NCBI GenBank assembly: GCA_014323935.1
Contig: JACOND010000001.1
Location: 30,348-94,347 of the forward strand
DNA length: 64,000 nt
Source: Bdellovibrionales bacterium
GTDB taxonomy: Bacteria > Bdellovibrionota > Bdellovibrionia > Bdellovibrionales > UBA1609
Direction: 5' to 3'
Made by a program: the position numbers and the translations under genes. The notes under the pieces are model-generated. The model made no database searches and was not told where the DNA came from. It saw nothing but the letters and a program-made list of their open reading frames with translations. Below, one piece after another: positions 1 through 44,367 of this stretch (positions within the stretch are counted from its first letter, which is position 1; each line of letters starts with the position of its first letter).

Positions 1-1977
1 AGCACTAATACTATCAACTGTTCTAGTTCTAGTTCACCAGAATGTAGAGCTAGTCAGACTCAATTTCGTTTAACAGGTATTTATCCTGAGTATTGTGATA
101 ATTCCTACTTTACTTGTATAAGCCATGATTTATGGAAAAGAGGAGTAGAAAGTGGTGATCAAAACTTATGTCGTCAATCGAATGTTTCTATCACTCCTAT
201 TAGAGAACTGCCTCTTATAGCCCCTTTTTTACCAGAAGCTCGCATCGCTGAGAGAGCTGTAGATCTTTTAAGAGATGAAGTTGGTCAATCTTGTCCTTTA
301 GAAGGAGGTTTAAATTGGCTTATGACACAATTATTTTTAACACATTTTCGATTAGATCAAAAAGATCGAAAAGGCATGTTAAAAGAACTTTATAACAAAA
401 CTTTAAAAGAAGGAAAAGACCTAGATAACAAGGATATTTTTGAAGGAGCTAAAAAAGTTTTCATAGGAAATCTTACAAAAGTAAATTTTCATAATTTAAA
501 AGATCTTGCTGATTACAGTTTAGAAGAATTTCAAGCTTTCAAAGAAAAAGAATTCGAAGAGATTTTTAAAAGATTAGATGTTCAGCCTATCTTACTTTAT
601 GCAAATGTAGATGCTATAAGTGAAAGTGATTCTACTAGATGTACTGTCGAGTCCGTTCCTCATTTGGAAACCTTGTCATCTGATACTCGACAAACTCTTC
701 TAGATTTTATAAATACCCGTTTTTCAAGACCTCCTCATGGATTATTAAATTATTTAAGAAAAGAGAATATTTTAAATTTGTTTGAACTGAATCGTACCTT
801 TAAAGAAGAAAATGAGGACTTTCTAGCAACATTAACAGCTTCTTTTTTTAAGGAAAGAGAAGAAATTCTATACTATGGCTTAAGGTCAGAATTTGATTAT
901 AAAGATCAAATCTTTTCTTTGAATCTAGGTTCAGGAATTAAATTTAAAGCAAGTTCTTTTGCAAAAGCCTTTGGAGCTTCTTTTGGCCCTCAACCCGAAC
1001 AACATGATCCTTTTATTCCAACTAACAATGATAAAGCTCCCACTAAATTTGTTACTGATCGAAGCTTTTTAACTTATGTTCATCAACCTAATTTTTCTCG
1101 GTGGCCAGGGGATCCTTGGGGATTAGTAGACCTTCAATTACATGATCCTGATAGTCAGTTCATTTTTTTAAACAAGCAAAAAGATTACAAAGATACACAG
1201 CAAGTCTATAAAATGGAAGACTATTTTCATATCATCTTTTTTAACAGTCCAGATGATCCTTTAGCTCGTAATTTACCCCTTAATGAAGGTCATGATCCCT
1301 TTAGATTCACTCGATTAATGGAATGGTTAGCAATCTATCCCAATATGTACGATATCAGTTATTATTCTATCTTAGCGAACTACCATCAAACCTACTTTCC
1401 TAAAATCTGTAATTTATTAACAGGATCTGACTGTGAGGCTGAAAAAAGTAGCTCTTTCTCATTGGGAGACAATGTGTTTTATGTCAGAGGAGATTTTGGT
1501 TGGTCCGACAGTGAAAAATATATAAACGAGAATTCTAGATTAAAAGAGATTGAACTTTCTATTGCTCCTTTTTTTTTAATAGACAACCTTAGACCTAACA
1601 TAAATTTAGCTCCCTCCTCTCCACTGGAACTAAAGGCTAGAATCTTTGGCACACATAGCTCAAGCAATTTAAACTCTGTAAGAAAGCAACCCCCTTTAAT
1701 TCGCACAAATGTTTTTAACCAACCTTGGTTTGCTAACCCCTTACCAGATTTTTTACTCAGTTCTTGGTTCAATCCTTCCCCTTTAAATTATACGAACTAT
1801 GACCATCAAATGAATAACTTTTTAACATGTCAGTTTAAAGCAGAAGAAGGTCAACGTGTTCCAAGTTCTTGCGTAGGAAGAGGACGAACCGGTTATTCTG
1901 TAAAACTTATTTCCTGCAACATGGTTCGAACTTTTAAATCTAAACCAGACACAATTAATGAATTTTGTCCTCCTTAA
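1..1977 (+). CDS. Large hypothetical protein; 5' end lies upstream of the window (658 codons visible)
   Basis: Frame +1 has no stop from base 1 to the TAA at 1975-1977. The 551-aa ORF-track entry (Met at 322) is therefore only part of a longer CDS. The visible N-part is Cys-containing (CSSSSSPEC, YCDNSYFTC). I recognise no family motif. Confidence 0.6.
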   Translation, partial: STNTINCSSSSSPECRASQTQFRLTGIYPEYCDNSYFTCISHDLWKRGVESGDQNLCRQSNVSITPIRELPLIAPFLPEARIAERAVDLLRDEVGQSCPLEGGLNWLMTQLFLTHFRLDQKDRKGMLKELYNKTLKEGKDLDNKDIFEGAKKVFIGNLTKVNFHNLKDLADYSLEEFQAFKEKEFEEIFKRLDVQPILLYANVDAISESDSTRCTVESVPHLETLSSDTRQTLLDFINTRFSRPPHGLLNYLRKENILNLFELNRTFKEENEDFLATLTASFFKEREEILYYGLRSEFDYKDQIFSLNLGSGIKFKASSFAKAFGASFGPQPEQHDPFIPTNNDKAPTKFVTDRSFLTYVHQPNFSRWPGDPWGLVDLQLHDPDSQFIFLNKQKDYKDTQQVYKMEDYFHIIFFNSPDDPLARNLPLNEGHDPFRFTRLMEWLAIYPNMYDISYYSILANYHQTYFPKICNLLTGSDCEAEKSSSFSLGDNVFYVRGDFGWSDSEKYINENSRLKEIELSIAPFFLIDNLRPNINLAPSSPLELKARIFGTHSSSNLNSVRKQPPLIRTNVFNQPWFANPLPDFLLSSWFNPSPLNYTNYDHQMNNFLTCQFKAEEGQRVPSSCVGRGRTGYSVKLISCNMVRTFKSKPDTINEFCPP

Positions 1978-10827: not shown

Positions 10828-11766
10828 TCAAAAATTCATACCAGCTATTATCATAATTTGAAAAAGATCCCCGTAGAATTTATAACCTTTAATTTCTGGT
10901 CTTTTAGGAGTTTGAAGTAAAAAGAAAATATCTTGATTTTCAGGTACAATAGGTAAAACCGGAAGCTCGAGCTGAGAGAGATCTTGGTCTTCATGTTCAA
11001 GATTTACATAAAGATGGTTGACTTCTAGTCCTATAAAAAAATTCTCAATCAGGTTAAATTCTAAACCTAAACCTAATTTTAATCCCAAACGTTGATAAGT
11101 TTGATTTTCAAGAGCTCTTCTTTCTAAACTATCTATCCGGGGAATATTTGATTCGCTCGTTTGAGAGACTTGTTGCTGGGAATTAGATACATTGAAGAAT
11201 CCTTGCATTTGCGGGGTAATTTGAATTTTAGAATTAAATAAAAAAGGACCTATCATTAAATAAGGATTGATGGTTCTTTTTTCTTCATTTAAATACTGTT
11301 TATGTAAATAATATTTTAAATCCAAACTAAAGTTAAAAAGCTTATAACTTGTATTATATAAACTAACATAATGGTTTGTTGGAAAAGAAGTACTCAATTG
11401 AAAGGCTATATGAAAGTCAATAAAAAAGGAGAGACCTAAACCAGGAACAAAAAGAGAATCCCCGTAAATTTGTCTTAGATTAAAAGTAATACCTTGATAG
11501 CCTCCTAAAAAAACAAGAGAAAGAGAGCGACCATGTTGAAAAAAACTAAGGCTTTCTTCTTCAGCTATATTATCTTGAAACTCTCCAAAATCAATAAAGG
11601 GATCAAAAGCTTTATTATCAATCCCTTGAGCTAAGAGAAGGGACTTTTTTTTTAAAAACTTTAAATTCTGCTCATAATTTGAAAAGTTTTCTCCATTTTT
11701 GTTTTGCAAAAGGTTTTCAGCAAAAACAGTAAAGTTAAAACTTAAAAAAAAAAGTACTATCTTCAT
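10828..11766 (-). CDS. Hypothetical outer-membrane beta-barrel protein
   Basis: It has a signal peptide (MKIVLFFLSFNFTVFA) and beta-strand-like alternation. It ends in a terminal Phe (AGMNF). Confidence 0.45.
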   Translation of the reverse strand: MKIVLFFLSFNFTVFAENLLQNKNGENFSNYEQNLKFLKKKSLLLAQGIDNKAFDPFIDFGEFQDNIAEEESLSFFQHGRSLSLVFLGGYQGITFNLRQIYGDSLFVPGLGLSFFIDFHIAFQLSTSFPTNHYVSLYNTSYKLFNFSLDLKYYLHKQYLNEEKRTINPYLMIGPFLFNSKIQITPQMQGFFNVSNSQQQVSQTSESNIPRIDSLERRALENQTYQRLGLKLGLGLEFNLIENFFIGLEVNHLYVNLEHEDQDLSQLELPVLPIVPENQDIFFLLQTPKRPEIKGYKFYGDLFQIMIIAGMNF

Positions 11767-37165: not shown

Positions 37166-38916
37166 TATAAAACATCAATTTCTTCAAAATCTTCTAACTC
37201 ATTATCTTCTATTGACTCTTGATTTTCTAACTCTTCTATTAATTCCTGATCCTCTAATTCATCTTCTTCTATTAACTCTTGATCTTCTAACTCGTCTATT
37301 AATTCCTGATCTTCTAATTCATCCTCTTCTATTAACTCTTGATCTTCTAACTCGTCTATTAATTCTCGATCTTCTAACTCACCTTCTTCAAGATCAGCAT
37401 TTTCTTTTAAACTTATTTCCTTTTTCTGATTTAACTCTTCTTTTAACTTTTCTTTTTCTAACTCTAAATCTTCGTCTACAGAATCAGTTTCTAAATCTTT
37501 TTCTTCAATTAAAAACTGAAATTCTTGTTCAATTTCATTATCTTCACGATCTTTATCTAAATCTTTTCCCCTTAAATTTTCTATTTCATCTTCCTCTTGA
37601 TTGTTAAACTTGTCTCTAATCTCTTCATCTTTCTTTTCTTGAGGGTCTTTTATCCCTTCTTCTATAAAATAGGGAGGGGTTTCTATCACTTCCTCAACAT
37701 CTAGTAATAGTTCTTGTCCTTGATCTAAATCTTCAACCGCTTCAATTGGCTCTAAGTCAATGGGGTTTAAAAGACCTGTAAAACTATCCCCTACATAGAT
37801 TCTCTCTTTTGCTGATAAAATAATCGCAGTTGATTTAAATTTAGTTGTTTTTATGACCTTCAATTTTCCAAGGGAAAAACCAGGGTATTTGGGGCGACGA
37901 AAACTAGATTTTTCAGAAGAATCAGCTCTAATATAAAAGCTATCTTCTTCATATAAACCATCACTACTTCCTTTATCTAAATAGACAATATTTCCTGTGG
38001 ATAAAACTAAAAGATCCTTAGGATTTCCTATAATTTCTCCTTGTTTATTTGCTAATTTTGTCTTGGAAAAAGTATAAAAAGGGACCTCACCTTTAAAAAC
38101 CTTGTCTCCTAAAAATAGCGTATCAAAAGTAGATATAACTTGAGCTTTATATAAATCATAGCCTTGAATGTAGGATACAACTTTTAAAATAGCTTTGATT
38201 TGAATCTCATATTCTTGAGAAAATAATCTTGAGAAATTTTTTGCTTTAAAAACAGTAAGTACAGTTCCAACTGGTACACTTTGTGATAGACGTAAAGTAA
38301 AGTATTCTCCCATAACTCCTAAAAAATCACCAAAATTTTCTGTTCCTATAATTTCTCCAGCAGATGGAGGAAGAGTGTCACTGAGATAATACGGAATAAG
38401 TATTTTTTGTGGAAGTCTAAAGACATCAAGTCCTGATAAGTCAAAACCAGATTTATCTTCTAGAAGAGGAATCTCAGGAAGAGAAGGAGGAAAATCTTCT
38501 GCTTTTAAAGCGGGTTTAGAAAAATGAGGTTCGAGTTGTATATCTGAAAACAAGGCTTGAACATCAACTCCATAGGGGGCCTTTGTAATATCAAATAAAT
38601 CTTGAGGGTTTAAATTGATACTATCTCCCTCGAAAATTCTATGTGGATTTTCTATTGTAGGATTGACAACCCATAATTTAGACCAATACAAAGAATCTTT
38701 AAACCAAGTTCCACTTAAATTCCAAAAATTATCTTTATATTGCAATTGGTAACTTTTAGACAAATTGTTGATTTTATCATTCCAGTCATTGTAAGAAATA
38801 GGTTCCTCATAATGTTCTAAATAAATGTTGTGAAGCCATTTCTCATACTCCTGGTCAGTCATACTAAAAGCCCTTAAAGAAAAAAATAAAGACAAGCAAA
38901 GGTAAAGAATTTTCAT
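37165..38916 (-). CDS. Secreted LysM-like protein with a long acidic repeat tail
   Basis: It has a signal peptide and an N-terminal LysM-like segment (YQLQYKDNFWNLSG...WVVNP...IFEGDSINL). The C-terminal ~170 aa are Glu/Asp-rich and end in ELEDQELIDELEDQELIEED repeats. Confidence 0.6.
   Translation of the reverse strand: MKILYLCLSLFFSLRAFSMTDQEYEKWLHNIYLEHYEEPISYNDWNDKINNLSKSYQLQYKDNFWNLSGTWFKDSLYWSKLWVVNPTIENPHRIFEGDSINLNPQDLFDITKAPYGVDVQALFSDIQLEPHFSKPALKAEDFPPSLPEIPLLEDKSGFDLSGLDVFRLPQKILIPYYLSDTLPPSAGEIIGTENFGDFLGVMGEYFTLRLSQSVPVGTVLTVFKAKNFSRLFSQEYEIQIKAILKVVSYIQGYDLYKAQVISTFDTLFLGDKVFKGEVPFYTFSKTKLANKQGEIIGNPKDLLVLSTGNIVYLDKGSSDGLYEEDSFYIRADSSEKSSFRRPKYPGFSLGKLKVIKTTKFKSTAIILSAKERIYVGDSFTGLLNPIDLEPIEAVEDLDQGQELLLDVEEVIETPPYFIEEGIKDPQEKKDEEIRDKFNNQEEDEIENLRGKDLDKDREDNEIEQEFQFLIEEKDLETDSVDEDLELEKEKLKEELNQKKEISLKENADLEEGELEDRELIDELEDQELIEEDELEDQELIDELEDQELIEEDELEDQELIEELENQESIEDNELEDFEEIDVL
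37201..37380. repeat. Coding tandem repeat, 3 x 60 bp (each built from two ~30-bp sub-repeats)
   Basis: 37201-37260, 37261-37320 and 37321-37380 differ by only a few bases. They encode the 20-aa acidic unit ELEDQELIDELEDQELIEED on the minus strand. Confidence 0.9.
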
Positions 38917-38959: not shown

Positions 38960-39913
38960 ATGTCAAAAAACTATTTTCCTAGAATAGACGAAAGTCTGAA
39001 TTTCTGGAACTTTCTTTGCTATAGGAATAAAGAAGAGTTTTTTGTGTTTTTTATTTTAGTTTTTATTCCTTTTTTATTTTTTTTTGACAGTTTTAAACTT
39101 TCTCAAAGTTTACATCAGCTGTGTTTAAACAATTTAAGTTTTGACAGTTCGATTCCTGAAATTTATCAAGCCTTGATTTGTGGTAAAAGACTTCCCTACA
39201 GTGAACTCAGAGAGCTTTTTGTGAAAGGAGGATTAATTCATCTTATGATTGTTTCAGGAACTCATTTAATTTTTTTAGAACGACTTCTTTTAAAGATTCC
39301 CTTTTTAAAAACAAATTTCATTTATTTTTTTTTAACTCTCTATGCTTTAACCAGTCAACTGAACCCACCTATCTTGAGAGCTCTATTTTCCTTTTTTCTT
39401 TCAAAATTTTCTAAAAAATGGAATTTATTTTGGAGTCCTATAAGTATTACTTTGCTCAGTGGTTTTTTATGCTTACTTTATAGACCCAATGATCAAGATT
39501 CTTTTTCTTTACAGTTAAGTGTTTTAGCCTCTTTATTACATCATTCTTTCAAATCCCCTTTAAAATGTTCTTTTTTTATTTATCTTCTTATTTTACCTCT
39601 TATTAATCATTGGCAAGAACTATCTTCTTTAACTGTCTTAATCAATTGGATAATAGCCCCTGTAATCAGTTCTTTTTTATTTCCTTTATCTTTTTTAACT
39701 GGTTTCTTCCCTTTTCTTTATGTTTTCAGTGATTTTTCATGGTCAATTTGTTTAAAAATACTAAAATTCATTCAACAGTTGCCCTTTGATAAAAGTTTAC
39801 ATAATTGGTGTCTTCCTAAAAAGTGGATATGGTTCTATATTATTTTCATTTGGTTCGTTTTATTTCATTTTAAAAGCTTTTTGATTAGAATGAAAATTAA
39901 GAGAAAGTCTTAA
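38960..39913 (+). CDS. ComEC/Rec2-family membrane protein, competence-domain only
   Basis: 317 aa, polytopic, with the signature GGLIHLMIVSGTHLIFL. It has no OB-fold N-terminus and no metallo-beta-lactamase C-terminal domain. Confidence 0.6.
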   Translation: MSKNYFPRIDESLNFWNFLCYRNKEEFFVFFILVFIPFLFFFDSFKLSQSLHQLCLNNLSFDSSIPEIYQALICGKRLPYSELRELFVKGGLIHLMIVSGTHLIFLERLLLKIPFLKTNFIYFFLTLYALTSQLNPPILRALFSFFLSKFSKKWNLFWSPISITLLSGFLCLLYRPNDQDSFSLQLSVLASLLHHSFKSPLKCSFFIYLLILPLINHWQELSSLTVLINWIIAPVISSFLFPLSFLTGFFPFLYVFSDFSWSICLKILKFIQQLPFDKSLHNWCLPKKWIWFYIIFIWFVLFHFKSFLIRMKIKRKS

Positions 39914-40515: not shown

Positions 40516-41706
40516 ATGTTTCTCTATAAAAATAATAGACTTGTATTACAAAAAGAAGACAGCTTTGTCCCTGTTGAAGAGATTGCTCAACAACAAAAGA
40601 AACCTTTTTATCTCTACGATCTTGAAGGAATTAAAAAATGGTATAGATTTTTTATCTCTCAAACTAAGCAGAGTTTAAAAGTCTTTTTTGCTATGAAATC
40701 TAATAATAACAAACAGATTTTAACAGCTTTGAAAGAAGAAGGTTGCGGAGTTGATGTGGTTTCTTTAGGAGAAGCTCAGTTGGCTTTAAATCTAGGGTTT
40801 TCTCCTCAAAAAATCGTTTTTTCAGGAGTAGGGAAAACAACAGAAGAACTGAACTTAGCAGTTACTCAATCTTTTTTTCAAACCAATATTGAAAGCTTTG
40901 AAGAGTTACATCGTCTCATTCAAATAGTAAAACAAAGAAAGAAAAACATCAAAATAGGTCTTAGAATCAACCCCAATATAGACTTTAAGTCCCATCCTTA
41001 TATCAAAACAGGTTTAAATGAACATAAGTTTGGTTTAGACGAAAGTGAGCTTAAAAACATTTTAAATTGTATTAAGCAACATAAACAAATCTCTTTAAAG
41101 GGCTTGAGCATGCATATAGGCTCTCAAATTTATGATATCCAAGCTTTATCAAAAGCTATGTCTTCCCTTAAAATGCTTTACAAAAGTATAAAAAAACAAG
41201 GCTTTCCTTTGGAAGTTTTAGATATAGGAGGAGGATTAGGAATAAAATATGAAAAAGAAGATTTAGAGGATGAAAAAAACAGACTCTTTGCTTTTAATCA
41301 AGCTTTTAAAGATGTTTTTAAAAACTTTGAAGCTGAAATTATTACAGAACCAGGACGTTTTTTAGTCGCTCGTTTTGGAATCTTATGCTCTCAAGTAGAG
41401 TACTTAAAACAAAACCCACAAAAACAATTTCTCATACTAAATAGTGGAATGAATCACTTTCTAAGGACTGCTCTCTATGGAACACAGCACCGCATTCTAC
41501 CTCTTTTACAAAGACAAGGGGAAAAAGAACTTTATGATGTCGTAGGACCTATTTGTGAAACAGGAGATACTTTTTACAAAGACTGCCTTCTCTCACCAAG
41601 AAAACCAGGGGATTGGCTGGCCATTGCAGATACAGGAGCTTATGGGTTTGTCATGTCTAACTCTTATAACTTACAAATTCCTATAAAAGAAGTTTGTATT
41701 TCATAA
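40516..41706 (+). CDS. lysA: Diaminopimelate decarboxylase (fold-type III PLP decarboxylase)
   Basis: 396 aa with PLP-Lys context FFAMKSNNN, plus HIGSQ, DIGGGLGI, EPGRFLV and CETGD. Confidence 0.75.
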   Translation: MFLYKNNRLVLQKEDSFVPVEEIAQQQKKPFYLYDLEGIKKWYRFFISQTKQSLKVFFAMKSNNNKQILTALKEEGCGVDVVSLGEAQLALNLGFSPQKIVFSGVGKTTEELNLAVTQSFFQTNIESFEELHRLIQIVKQRKKNIKIGLRINPNIDFKSHPYIKTGLNEHKFGLDESELKNILNCIKQHKQISLKGLSMHIGSQIYDIQALSKAMSSLKMLYKSIKKQGFPLEVLDIGGGLGIKYEKEDLEDEKNRLFAFNQAFKDVFKNFEAEIITEPGRFLVARFGILCSQVEYLKQNPQKQFLILNSGMNHFLRTALYGTQHRILPLLQRQGEKELYDVVGPICETGDTFYKDCLLSPRKPGDWLAIADTGAYGFVMSNSYNLQIPIKEVCIS

Positions 41707-41734
41707 AAGCTTACTGTATTTTTGAAAAAAAGAA
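41705..41734. repeat. Relic of the menA 5' end at the lysA/pilin junction
   Basis: The sequence aaaagcttactgtatttttgaaaaaaagaa matches 46165-46194 (aaaagcttactgtattttttaaaaaaagaa) at 29 of 30 positions. The latter encodes the first codons of menA on the minus strand. Confidence 0.8.
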
Positions 41735-41770
41735 TTTCTTTCATTTCAGATCTTAACCCGGAAAACTTAA

Positions 41771-42367
41771 TTAGGTACCATCCTTTTCATGTGTAATTGT
41801 TTGGTTTTGATTAATTGACCATATATCAGGAGAACCCTTGCCAAAGTGTTTTACAGCGATTGCTTTAAATTTATCAACTTCTGCTGTTGCTGTTCCACAA
41901 CTTCCACAATCTTTAATCCCTGAATCCTTTACCTCACAATCAGGAGGTGTAAAAAAACCAGTGCTACGACTTATAGAAGATACACATTTCTTCTCACATA
42001 TACCCTTAAAAGAAGAGCATTCCTCTTTTTGAAGGAATCCTGCTTCCACAGGGTATTTTTTTAATTTTCCTCCTGTCGTATGTCCTTCAGAGGTAAATCC
42101 TACATCATAGTTGTAATTACTTTCGGGATTAACTCCTACTATCATTAAATTTTCATGGTAAGAATTCCAATGACTAAAAAAGATTCGTTCATAATTATAG
42201 ACAAAAGAAAGACTTTGTTGAGCTTCTGCTTTGTAAGATTTATTGATCTGTGATTGATAATTTTTTATACCAATAATTGCTAAAACAACCATAAGAGTGA
42301 CTGCCGTCAATAGTTCAAGCATACTAAAAGCTCTTTTATTTAAAAACTTTTGTTTTCCTAATACCAT
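41771..42367 (-). CDS. Type IV pilin-like protein (paralogue 1)
   Basis: 198 aa with the prepilin N-terminus KRA|FSMLELLTAVTLMVVLAIIG; Glu is at +5 and Ala at -1. Six Cys residues are conserved with paralogue 2. Confidence 0.8.
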   Translation of the reverse strand: MVLGKQKFLNKRAFSMLELLTAVTLMVVLAIIGIKNYQSQINKSYKAEAQQSLSFVYNYERIFFSHWNSYHENLMIVGVNPESNYNYDVGFTSEGHTTGGKLKKYPVEAGFLQKEECSSFKGICEKKCVSSISRSTGFFTPPDCEVKDSGIKDCGSCGTATAEVDKFKAIAVKHFGKGSPDIWSINQNQTITHEKDGT

Positions 42368-42438
42368 TCTTTTTATTATATCTTCTTTTTATATTCTTTC
42401 AAATTTAATTGTATTTTTATTTTTTCAAACCTAATTTC
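42365..42438. repeat. 74-bp exact repeat (pilin 5' flank), copy 1
   Basis: It is identical to 43176-43249 (cattctttttattatatcttctttttatattctttcaaatttaattgtatttttattttttcaaacctaatttc). Its last 22 nt equal the 3' end of menE. Confidence 0.9.
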
Positions 42439-42569
42439 AGTAAAAAAACTTAAAGAACTTTTTACTGTTATAAGACCTCTTTATGAAATAGGGGTTTGTG
42501 CTTTTATCATATCTAATTATTAATACCTTATAGATTCTTCTTTCATTTCAGCTTTTCTTAAAAACTTAA

Positions 42570-43178
42570 TTAGGTACCATCATTTTCATGTTCAATTGTT
42601 TGATTTTGATTAATCGACCATATATCAGGAATTTCCTTACCAAAGTGTTTTACAGCGATTGCTTTAAAAGTAGTATTTTTTGCTGTTGCTGTTCCACAAT
42701 TCCCACAAACTTTAATCCCTATATCCTTTACTTCACAGTTAGGTATATTAAAATAATCACCATAATAACTACTTATATCTGAGGATGAATCTGTTAGACA
42801 CTCACCATTACATATCTCTTTAAAAGAAGAACATCCTCTTACACCAAGAATCTTTTTTATGGGATATTCATTTAAATTTCCTCCTATCTTAGGCCCTGGA
42901 GATGTAAACCCTACATCATAATTGTAAACACCTGAAGGAACAGCTCCTATTATCATTAAATTTGCATGGTAAGAATTCCAATTATTAAAAAAAACCTGTT
43001 CATAATTATAGACAAAAGAAAGACTTTGTTGAGCTTCTGCGATGTAAGCTTTATTGATCTGGGATTTATAATTTTTTACACCAATCGTTGCTAAAACAGC
43101 CATAAGAGTTGTTGCCGTCAATAGTTCAAGCATACTAAAAGCTCTTCTATTTAAAAACTTTTGTTTTCCTAATATCAT
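42570..43178 (-). CDS. Type IV pilin-like protein (paralogue 2)
   Basis: 202 aa with the same prepilin N-terminus (RRA|FSMLELLTATTLMAVLATIG). The N- and C-terminal thirds are near-identical to paralogue 1. The centre diverges (about residues 93-145). Confidence 0.8.
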   Translation of the reverse strand: MILGKQKFLNRRAFSMLELLTATTLMAVLATIGVKNYKSQINKAYIAEAQQSLSFVYNYEQVFFNNWNSYHANLMIIGAVPSGVYNYDVGFTSPGPKIGGNLNEYPIKKILGVRGCSSFKEICNGECLTDSSSDISSYYGDYFNIPNCEVKDIGIKVCGNCGTATAKNTTFKAIAVKHFGKEIPDIWSINQNQTIEHENDGT

Positions 43179-43249
43179 TCTTTTTATTATATCTTCTTTT
43201 TATATTCTTTCAAATTTAATTGTATTTTTATTTTTTCAAACCTAATTTC
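43176..43249. repeat. 74-bp exact repeat (pilin 5' flank), copy 2, overlapping the menE stop
   Basis: It is identical to 42365-42438. Positions 43228-43249 are the genuine menE 3' end (EKLGLKK*). Confidence 0.9.
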
Positions 43250-44367
43250 TCCAAAAAAAATTCAGGTTTTAACTTTAAAAACCTGTATTGAGACGTTTGA
43301 AATATCAAATATAAATTTTGAATTTTCTCATATCCAGAGACCTCTTGATTGAACTGTTTTGCCAAAAAAGAGAGTTTTTCAAAATGACCGGCAAAACCCA
43401 ATAGACTCAAACAGCAACCTCTTCTTTTGTCAGGAATAGAAAGCAAGAAACTTTCTATCCCTTGTTTTTGAGATAATTCTTTTAATTTTAAACGAAGCTT
43501 TTGTAAATTCACACTCTCTCCTAAAATCTTAATTTGCTCCTTAAATCTTGTTCGAATTTTTAAATGATTTTCTTTGAGTAAAGCAAAATCTTTTAAAACA
43601 AAACAAGCTTCTTTATCTTTAGGATCATAAATTTTTCTTTTTTCTAAATCAAAGTAAGCACTTACTAAAGCCTGACTTTTCACTTTTAGAAAACCATAGC
43701 CATCTTTCTTTTTTTGAACAGATTCTACTTGAATAGAAGGTAAAATTTTCATTTTTGGAAAAGTGTTCTCTTTTAATGAATCGAGAGAAGAAGAAGCTAT
43801 CTGAGAACAGGTCTCTGTAGCCCCATAACAGATTAAAAGAGGCCAAAACAGCTCTCTTGCTTTTTTATAAATATCAGGAGATAAATAATCTCCTCCCACC
43901 AAGAGAACTCTCAAACTTTTAGGGGCTGTTAAACCTTTTTGAACCAAATCATAAATTTGAGTTGGAACAACAGAACTTAAAGTGATTTTTTCTTCTTGAA
44001 TTCTTTTTCTAAAAACATAAGGATTCCAGGCTCCTTCTTGAATAAAATAAGAGCTTCTTGATAAAAAAACCCTTGCTAAAATAGAGATGCCACTTACATG
44101 AAAAAAAGGCAAACAAATCAGCCATCTATCTTTAGAACTCGCTTGAAGATTTTGATTAACTAGGCGAGCTGAAAATAAAAGAGCTTTTTTAGAAAGCAAA
44201 CAAATTTTAGAATAACTAGAGGTGTAAAGATAAATATGTTTTTTTAAAATAGGTATTTGTTGAGCTATTTTTCTAAATTCAAGAGCTTGAGGATGCCTGG
44301 TATTAAAAAAATAATGGCTTTGAGGACTCGTCCAGTCTATTTTACTTTCATTAATTAACAATTTCAT
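43228..44367 (-). CDS. menE: Adenylate-forming enzyme, MenE-like (o-succinylbenzoate-CoA ligase by context), short form
   Basis: 379 aa with ANL motifs YGATETCSQIA and GESVNL. The P-loop is degenerate (LYTSSYSKIC) and sits only about 45 aa from the N-terminus. It is adjacent to menC-menA-menB. Confidence 0.55.
   Translation of the reverse strand: MKLLINESKIDWTSPQSHYFFNTRHPQALEFRKIAQQIPILKKHIYLYTSSYSKICLLSKKALLFSARLVNQNLQASSKDRWLICLPFFHVSGISILARVFLSRSSYFIQEGAWNPYVFRKRIQEEKITLSSVVPTQIYDLVQKGLTAPKSLRVLLVGGDYLSPDIYKKARELFWPLLICYGATETCSQIASSSLDSLKENTFPKMKILPSIQVESVQKKKDGYGFLKVKSQALVSAYFDLEKRKIYDPKDKEACFVLKDFALLKENHLKIRTRFKEQIKILGESVNLQKLRLKLKELSQKQGIESFLLSIPDKRRGCCLSLLGFAGHFEKLSFLAKQFNQEVSGYEKIQNLYLIFQTSQYRFLKLKPEFFLEKLGLKK

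Follow-up and report, generated by a model that had tools for sequence, protein, structure and literature searches.

Many bacteria need type IV pili (T4P) to adhere and to move, and Bdellovibrio needs them to enter its prey; the surface that a filament exposes is set by the variable part of its major pilin. In the pilE/pilS system of Neisseria, a hypervariable region is enclosed by conserved N-terminal and Cys-flanked segments, genes are converted between copies, and the silent pilS cassettes have no promoter, start codon or leader. The pilA promoters of Pseudomonas and Myxococcus depend on sigma-54, and that of Myxococcus xanthus on PilR as well. 'Large' major pilins were reported by Treuner-Lange et al. 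in 93% of Myxococcota and 100% of Bdellovibrionota (170–204 amino acids (aa) there), with at least six Cys in about 9% of large pilins; in M. xanthus PilA, disulfides join C95 to C102 and C183 to C203, and a CPxC at 147/150 is unpaired (PMC11046646). PilA of Bdellovibrio bacteriovorus (Bd1290) is a ~20 kDa type IVa fibre pilin required for prey invasion (PMC3818213), and Xylella fastidiosa has PilA1, PilA2 and PilA3, complete paralogues with diverged globular parts and different deletion phenotypes (PMC9956873). Here we describe a tandem pair of pilin genes, U and D, in a 64-kb stretch of a Bdellovibrionales genome (contig JACOND010000001.1 of GCA_014323935.1, positions 30,348 to 94,347; hereafter the window). 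We consider it probable that U and D each form a complete major-type pilin gene with a promoter of its own, that the pair arose by tandem duplication, and that the ends were matched by gene conversion while the centre stayed distinct.

Both open reading frames (ORFs) are complete and lie head-to-tail on the same strand, separated by a 202-bp spacer (Table 1). U keeps the ancestral slot immediately downstream of menE, and D is the second tandem copy, converging on lysA. U is NCBI MBC6414836.1 (exact match; record name 'type II secretion system protein') and D is MBC6414835.1 ('hypothetical protein GDA46_00345'), labels that the present finding corrects. The two proteins are 67% identical (135/203; BLASTP E=6e-99), and the identity is distributed unevenly: 20-residue windows share 75–90% over residues 1–60, 20–45% over residues 91–150 and 80–90% over the last 40, and the N-terminus, centre and C-terminus are 77/48/88% identical. 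The initial annotation of this DNA had described near-identical N-terminal helices and C-termini (FKAIAVKHFGK..PDIWSINQNQTI.HE.DGT) around a divergent, Cys-framed centre, and the protein alignment agrees: near-identity at the N-terminus takes in the leader and alpha1, the six Cys are aligned between U and D, D keeps every family-invariant residue as well as the six Cys, and divergence along the genes is strongly non-uniform. The identical 74-nt stretch noted upstream was also recovered: it is the start codon together with the 71 nt before it, and the upstream homology goes on, decayed, to about −84. Downstream, the 3' flanks are similar as described, with ~32–35 nt aligning (TTAAGTTTT...CTGAAATGAAAGAA).

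The spacer still records how the pair arose. It is fully explained by a promoter block, a remnant of the menE tail, a relic of lysA, a ~129-nt deletion gap and 3' flank homology. The distal 22 nt of the U promoter block belong to the end of menE (final codons and stop), and the corresponding 22 nt of the D block are a non-coding copy of that stop region. When the spacer was aligned locally with the sequence preceding U, the menE copy could be followed through a decayed T-run to an inferred junction at about 42451/42452; there the menE-tail relic (42417..42451) meets a remnant of the 3' coding part of lysA. The lysA relic matches 41524..41564, which encodes KELYDVVGPICETG, at 32/41 positions with a score of 37 (shuffles 18.0 +/- 2.6, none of 2000 reaching 37), and is the only match of at least 28/41 across the window. 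It lies 928 nt from its source, which is the original period of the repeat; the spacings of 811 and 799 nt result from the deletion and a 12-nt indel. A segment of ~0.93 kb (41524..42451), reaching from inside lysA to the menE tail, was thus duplicated in tandem, and the readable junction and preserved period argue against an assembly artefact. The lysA relic serves as a neutral yardstick of divergence, at 22% (9/41 differences). U and D are co-oriented, and no inverted repeats pointing to an invertible, Moraxella-type switch were found.

Against this yardstick, divergence between the copies was heterogeneous at both the protein and the synonymous level. We estimated non-synonymous (dN) and synonymous (dS) divergence by the method of Nei and Gojobori, taking alignment columns 93–172 as the centre. 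dS and dN were 0.30 and 0.20 over the whole gene (dN/dS 0.67), 0.086 and 0.081 in codons 1–60 (0.94), and 0.52 and 0.38 in the centre (0.73). dS was 0.22 in the last 31 codons and 0.08–0.28 near the 3' end, and rose to 0.9–1.2 in sliding windows across 101–150 (dN/dS 0.40–0.59), so that synonymous divergence is ~ten-fold lower at the 5' end than the value of ~1 in those windows. Among codons that specify the same residue in both copies, synonymous differences numbered 1/48 in codons 1–60, 4/19 in 61–92, 7/24 in 93–150 and 4/41 in 151–203; the 5' end differed from the centre (Fisher P=0.0014), as did the two ends pooled from the middle (P=0.003). The promoter block has 0/71 differences where ~16 are expected at the relic rate, and none of 100000 permutations of the differences produced a run as long as the 74 identical nt. 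In the closest relative, L002, the orthologous promoter shares little with these blocks besides the hexamers. Given the ~ten-fold lower dS at the 5' end and the unchanged promoter beside a relic diverged by 22%, we strongly infer from the sequences that the promoter and approximately the first 60 codons underwent gene conversion; the 3' end (last ~50 codons) appears, less clearly, to have done so too, and the centre keeps the older divergence. The near-identical termini would then owe much to gene conversion, besides protein constraint.

Selection on the protein alone, with assembly constraining the ends and positive diversifying selection acting on an exposed receptor-binding or antigenic patch, would make conversion unneeded. 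The U/D profile does parallel conservation across the family: among orthologues, identity is 73% in the N-terminus, 40% in the centre and 67% in the C-terminus, a conserved-ends profile that is family-wide, and orthologue conservation is 0.76 at sites where U and D agree and 0.52 where they differ (P=3e-9). dN/dS is also fairly high, both overall and in the centre, and reaches 0.79 in the centre of the L017/L018 alleles described below. However, dN/dS in the centre never exceeds 1, the same heterogeneity is present at synonymous sites, and the 71 identical non-coding nt include the functionless menE relic, directly beside a relic that has diverged. We therefore regard selection alone as an unlikely account. 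Positive selection is not demonstrated by these comparisons because no central window has dN/dS >1. Codons 151–180 gave a dN/dS of 2.09 from 1.5 synonymous and 10.5 non-synonymous changes, which are too few to support positive selection, and that candidate was rejected. The centre had been annotated as a surface-exposed, diversifying region; its variable, Cys-framed character stands, but diversifying selection is not supported, with central dN/dS of 0.4–0.73 when the ratio is taken by region. The overall pattern appears to combine gene conversion, which keeps the ends alike, with a constraint relaxed throughout the family on a surface module that is free to differ. As a separate observation, codons 1–60 carry 11 non-synonymous and ~3 synonymous changes (dN/dS about 0.9–1.4, from small numbers), a ratio that is odd for this region, and several of the changes (V/T, V/A, I/T, I/V) fall in the normally invariant alpha1-N.

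The proteins belong to a family that standard libraries recognise only by its N-terminal prepilin motif. TIGR02532 matched U at 19.4 bits (cutoff 16.3 bits), both copies stayed below the Pfam N_methyl cutoff, and both also matched the N-terminal part of the Myxococcus PilA model at sub-threshold scores. The features of a class III signal peptide, scored as a short basic leader, a small residue at −1, a hydrophobic residue at +1, Glu at +5 and ~20 hydrophobic residues, are present in U (..NRRA/FSMLELLTATTLMAVLATIGV) and D (..NKRA/FSMLELLTAVTLMVVLAIIGI), where the slash marks the cleavage site. A search of 5.8 billion proteins returned the window proteins themselves and eleven metagenomic homologues that were 43–51% identical, and a profile search of 1.84 billion cluster representatives returned 25 at E<1e-30, mostly full-length, with complete ones of ~190–290 aa. 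Members share the motifs YHENL..VGA.P.G.Y.YDVGF, four Cys, and FKA.A...L...D.WSI....H..DGT, and the family profile scored U at 255.5 bits and D at 246.3 bits. These searches define a family of ~200-aa pilins confined so far to metagenome-assembled genomes (MAGs) of uncultured Oligoflexia and Bdellovibrionales.

The best match of the family profile in the PDB was M. xanthus PilA (8tj2; E=6.5e-15 over 80 residues), and all 19 PDB matches were T4P major pilins or close kin, among them Geobacter PilA-N, PAK pilin, PilE and PpdD. An AlphaFold2 (AF2) model of U predicted a pilin fold with a mean predicted local distance difference test (pLDDT) of 89.5 when built from a 33-sequence alignment; a 13-sequence alignment gave 41.8 and was unusable. 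The model has a helix at 16–67, a beta-hairpin at 83–90, a loop and short-helix excursion at 91–170, and C-terminal strands at 171–177, 185–190 and 195–199. Foldseek ranked 8tj2 and Thermus PilA4 (6xxd) first at probability 0.98–0.99, with weak E-values of 0.013 and 0.07, and matches below these were noise. The mature proteins would be 189 aa (U) and 185 aa (D), within the 170–204 aa published for Bdellovibrionota (PMC11046646), and they fall in the large-pilin class because their closest relatives are major pilins and their mature length exceeds ~165 aa. Homology and the fold model together indicate that U and D are large type IVa major-type pilins and not pseudopilins of a type II secretion system (T2SS), which upholds the initial view of them as pilin paralogues.

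That they might instead be minor pilins or T2SS pseudopilins, and not fibre subunits, is suggested by the NCBI product name of U, by weak matches to the minor-pilin family ComP_DUS in Pfam and by the absence of pilBCD genes nearby. The scan behind this last point, which agrees with what was first annotated, covered 57/62 window ORFs of at least 100 aa, every long ORF included, and matched no pilus-assembly family and found no gsp genes; the pilin neighbours are menE and lysA. Yet the ComP_DUS matches reach 15–21 bits where the cutoff is 27.3 bits, T2SS pseudopilins of the GspG type are absent from both the PDB sequence matches and the Foldseek matches, in which the best hits are major pilins, and the match to M. 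xanthus PilA spans 80 residues, well past the generic N-terminal motif. Minor pilins and pseudopilins normally sit in operons, whereas the pilin gene here occupies a housekeeping slot as a monocistronic unit driven by a strong promoter of its own. We judge this alternative quite improbable. The strong consensus promoter is in turn only suggestive of an abundant fibre subunit.

Several points tell against the account favoured here, of two major-type pilins with converted ends. Pro22, typical of type IVa pilins, is missing from the whole family: mature position 22 is Lys in U and D, and the family consensus in alpha1, FSLLELLSAASI.AVLSVVGIKSY, contains no Pro, where the typical pattern has Pro22 along with Gly14 and Gly42. 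Pro22 is typical of the class and not strictly defining. The assignment as major rather than low-abundance pilins is drawn from sequence similarity and context. For conversion, the synonymous contrast between C-terminus and centre is marginal (4/41 vs 7/24, P=0.08), and part of the 71-nt identity could reflect selection on the promoter or an UP element. A centre imported from elsewhere, in place of homogenised ends, would give the same pattern; against this, U and D resemble each other more closely than any orthologue in N-terminus, centre and C-terminus alike, where orthologues reach at most 66/43/67%.

The central module carries the cysteines, which in mature numbering of U are C103-x6-C110, C114, C135 and C145-xx-C148, that is, four family-invariant Cys and a CxxC. 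By analogy with M. xanthus PilA, disulfides C103-C110 and C114-C135 are likely and would staple the centre, the CxxC (C145/C148) would be M. xanthus-like, and the centre would be exposed on the filament surface. Three short relatives (L004–L006; 127 aa in L005) match only the N- and C-terminal parts of the family profile and are without the entire Cys-framed centre. The centre therefore behaves as an insertable module, and the core scaffold is older than the large-pilin insert.

Both copies have Ala at −1 (KRA/FSMLE in D, RRA/FSMLE in U), as the initial annotation had pointed out. It had set this against a near-universal Gly; in the family Ala is the minority residue, but it is not anomalous. 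A Gly-to-Ala change at −1 in Pseudomonas was reportedly described by Strom and Lory in 1991, a paper cited in PMC3694846. Of the 156 family members in which a cleavage motif is recognisable, the residue at this position is Gly in 144 and Ala in 11, and Ala is found in 6/13 of the closest relatives. Pneumococcal ComGC offers a precedent, being cleaved after Ala and then methylated according to mass spectrometry (PMC3694846). Ala at −1 is thus a minority state that recurs in the clade, and, by analogy, PilD-type cleavage after Ala −1 would be expected in U and D.

The promoter blocks contain a sigma-70-like promoter that agrees with the consensus at 11/12 positions, unlike the sigma-54-dependent pilA promoters described above. 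In both copies, 7 nt separate its −10 hexamer from the ATG. In the loci inspected for promoter spacing, which included L001–L003, L007–L009, L015, L017 and L018, the hexamers are kept upstream of six orthologues and the L015–L018 genes, ending 6–21 nt before the ATG. This spacing suggests very short or absent 5' leaders, i.e. leaderless mRNAs, for the pilin family. A Shine-Dalgarno-like motif (GGAG, GAGG or AGGA, 6–18 nt upstream of the start) precedes 8/55 window ORFs, and the genome, at ~30% G+C, appears Shine-Dalgarno-poor in general. No convincing terminator was seen when the 3' flanks were scanned and folded, either between the two genes or beyond them (fold z-scores +0.8 to +1.5). A terminator-like hairpin with a T-run (CAGGTTTTTAAAGTTAAAACCTG AATTTTTTTT) does lie within the last ~20 codons of menE, just ahead of the U promoter block, and it may insulate the pilin promoter from transcription of the men operon.

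The same mosaic recurs elsewhere in the clade. Related loci were found by exact-protein look-up or by a scan of GTDB genomes, in which an alignment of intermediate divergence yielded 5 loci and a close alignment as query yielded none; a metagenome scan returned three short, distant pilins only. Twelve of the loci are single-copy and four (L015, L016, L017 and L018) have a tandem pair, in a separate sub-lineage; the second copy of L016 is frameshifted, in an assembly at 4x coverage. The L015 copies are 86/27/71% identical in N-terminus, centre and C-terminus, their dS is 0.19 in codons 1–60 and saturated elsewhere, and in trees their N-termini cluster by genome while their centres cluster with different relatives. 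They have similar promoter blocks, each with a copy of the menE stop region. L015 thus appears to be an older, independent duplication with its 5' end under concerted evolution.

L017 and L018, from two samples, are 100% identical over ~3 kb of upstream flank and pilin copy 1, and then diverge to 75–81% nucleotide identity (58–87% across the whole diverged segment) from the centre of copy 2 on, for ~1.7 kb downstream. In copy 2, the N-terminal dS is 0.03, and the centre has dS 0.54 and dN 0.43 (dN/dS 0.79). The comparison points to recombination that replaced this segment between strains, one breakpoint lying within the pilin gene, and the pattern would fit a hot spot for allelic replacement. 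The diverged segment downstream also covers small ORFs without annotation.

Such replacement, the recombination between U and D, and conserved flanks around a variable centre, the substrate of such systems, could all speak for antigenic variation in the style of Neisseria, with one expression locus and one donor cassette for the centre. But no promoterless, 5'-truncated donor copy was found: U and D each have a promoter block, a start codon and a leader. The copies number only two, the family profile finding no further member elsewhere in the window, and the exchanged tracts are the ends and not the centre. We give this possibility very little credence, and duplication followed by conversion of the ends remains our reading of the pair.

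The pilin slot itself is conserved. The men genes menB, menA, menC and menE lie upstream and convergent lysA downstream, and menE, lysA or both adjoin the pilin in 15/16 related loci with a full-length member; in L012–L014 neither was detected within the fetched flanks. The relatives come from MAGs that bear the label Oligoflexia or Bdellovibrionales and whose chromosomes measure 1.8–2.5 Mb. Between genomes the neighbouring enzymes are 55–85% identical and the pilin 43–51%, so the pilin evolves faster than its surroundings. Coordinates of these and other features are given in Table 1.

Table 1 Features of the pilin locus, the wider window and related loci (window positions unless a locus is named)
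Feature	Position	Strand	Remarks
Pilin copy U	42570..43178	minus	202-aa ORF; 13-aa leader MILGKQKFLNRRA, then FSMLELL...
Pilin copy D	41771..42367	minus	198-aa ORF; leader MVLGKQKFLNKRA, then FSMLELL...
U 5' block, 71 nt	43179..43249	minus	identical to D block; TTGAAA-16-TATAAT at 43213..43186; distal 22 nt at 43228..43249
D 5' block, 71 nt	42368..42438	minus	100% identical to U block; promoter-like site at 42402..42375; distal 22 nt at 42417..42438
U 3' flank	42538..42569	minus	homologous to D 3' flank
D 3' flank	41736..41770	minus	inside 64-bp spacer to convergent lysA stop
Decayed menE-tail continuation (T-run)	42439..42451	minus	local alignment of spacer with region upstream of U
lysA 3' coding relic	42452..42492	plus	matches lysA 3' coding sequence
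menE-like o-succinylbenzoate-CoA ligase gene	43228..44367	minus	conserved upstream neighbour; 3' end overlaps U promoter block
Terminator-like hairpin in menE	43253..43285	minus	
lysA (diaminopimelate decarboxylase)	40516..41706	plus	TIGR01048, 381 bits; conserved convergent downstream neighbour, source of spacer relic
ComEC-like ORF	38960..39913	plus	317 aa; 1.9 kb from pilin D
Ankyrin-repeat protein	29853..30356	minus	167 aa; Pfam Ank 1.4e-11
Large ORF, no Pfam match	37165..38916	minus	583 aa
Large ORF, no Pfam match	322..1977	plus	551 aa
Large ORF, no Pfam match	20325..21404	minus	359 aa
Large ORF, no Pfam match	10828..11766	minus	312 aa
Signal-peptide ORF, L001	8909..9382		between pilin and lysA
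Signal-peptide ORF, L003	8912..9454		between pilin and lysA
Signal-peptide ORF, L007	8710..9279		between pilin and lysA
Signal-peptide ORF, L008	8801..9334		between pilin and lysA
Signal-peptide ORF, L009	5148..5684		between pilin and lysA
Short pilin, L004	1237..1638		no Cys-framed centre
Short pilin, L005	5995..6378		no Cys-framed centre
Short pilin, L006	166..567		no Cys-framed centre
Diverged segment, L017	4950..6730		from centre of copy 2 downstream

Other genes around the pair gave separate observations. The ComEC-like ORF near D has the ComEC/Rec2 'Competence' domain only, and a link to competence was rejected because its synteny with the pilin is not kept in relatives, in which the gene after lysA encodes aspartate kinase. 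In many relatives, a conserved ORF of 157–189 aa between the pilin and lysA specifies a protein that has a signal peptide, several conserved Cys and no Pfam match. Kinship of this convergent ~180-aa ORF with the pilins was likewise rejected: it is unrelated to them and absent from the window and from L002. The four large ORFs of Table 1 had no Pfam match at 1e-4 or 1e-5. The ankyrin-repeat protein is unusual for a free-living bacterium, and the gene hints at a eukaryotic host for the MAG; among the relatives is one with the name RHO2_bin_34.

Taken as a mechanism, we propose that the ~0.93-kb lysA-to-menE segment was duplicated in tandem, leaving its junction in the spacer, and that the copies then diverged throughout. 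The promoter block and ~60 first codons, and less so the last ~50, would have been re-homogenised by conversion, while the central segment (residues ~93–170) would have stayed distinct. The 13-residue basic leader would be cut after Ala −1 by a PilD-type peptidase to expose Phe +1, with Glu +5 present. The alpha1 helix and three C-terminal beta-strands would form the assembly scaffold, as the family suggests, and the centre, stapled by its two likely disulfides, would decorate the filament surface as in M. xanthus PilA. By analogy both copies may be expressed, and two surface-distinct subunits made from identical promoters could be built into the same pili or into separate ones whose adhesive or antigenic surfaces differ. 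A link to predation or prey range, as raised in the initial annotation, is speculation. We also entertain, tentatively and as rather unlikely, the broader idea that the menE-lysA slot is a hot spot of pilin diversification in a small-genome (1.8–2.5 Mb), probably host-associated clade of Bdellovibrionota/Oligoflexia. It would combine at least two independent duplications, a conversion-matched promoter and alpha1, a strain-swapped, disulfide-stapled module and leaderless or nearly leaderless mRNAs from a consensus sigma-70 promoter, and the outcome would be a pilus of two subunits with a variable surface, suited to recognising a host or prey.

Among described systems, the closest is M. xanthus PilA (MXAN_5783; 8tj2), the best match by both sequence and fold; the sequence match covers alpha1 and the beginning of the globular domain. 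It resembles U and D in mature size (208 vs 185–189 residues), in its six Cys with a Cx6C pair and a CxxC (147/150 vs 145/148 in U), and in a C-terminal F.A.A...D.W.I motif. The differences are considerable: identity is ~16% across the globular domain, the second disulfide would lie elsewhere here, with no Cys in the last 40 residues, and U and D are tandemly duplicated, without Pro22, with Ala rather than Gly at −1, and with a sigma-70-like promoter that abuts the ATG. B. bacteriovorus Bd1290, compared by description and not by sequence, is from the same phylum and of a similar size class, but it adjoins pilG and an RHS gene where U and D lie between menE and lysA; the full-length family matches include no named Bdellovibrio protein. 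Xylella PilA1–PilA3 likewise place several complete major-pilin paralogues in one genome, in another phylum and family. ComGC of Streptococcus pneumoniae is likewise a prepilin with Ala at −1, naturally cleaved after that residue and then N-methylated (PMC3694846), but it is a small Gram-positive competence pilin, unrelated apart from the class III signal peptide. Neisseria pilE/pilS differs in that U and D both appear expressible, are only two copies, and had their ends homogenised by conversion without shuffling of the centre. Mosaic pilin evolution with conserved ends and paralogous major pilins are both already known, and the locus adds no new mechanism. It is a clean natural example of pilin duplication followed by mosaic evolution, and what stands out among these systems is its still legible junction, the recurrence of the pattern in a second lineage of an uncultured clade, and possibly leaderless expression.

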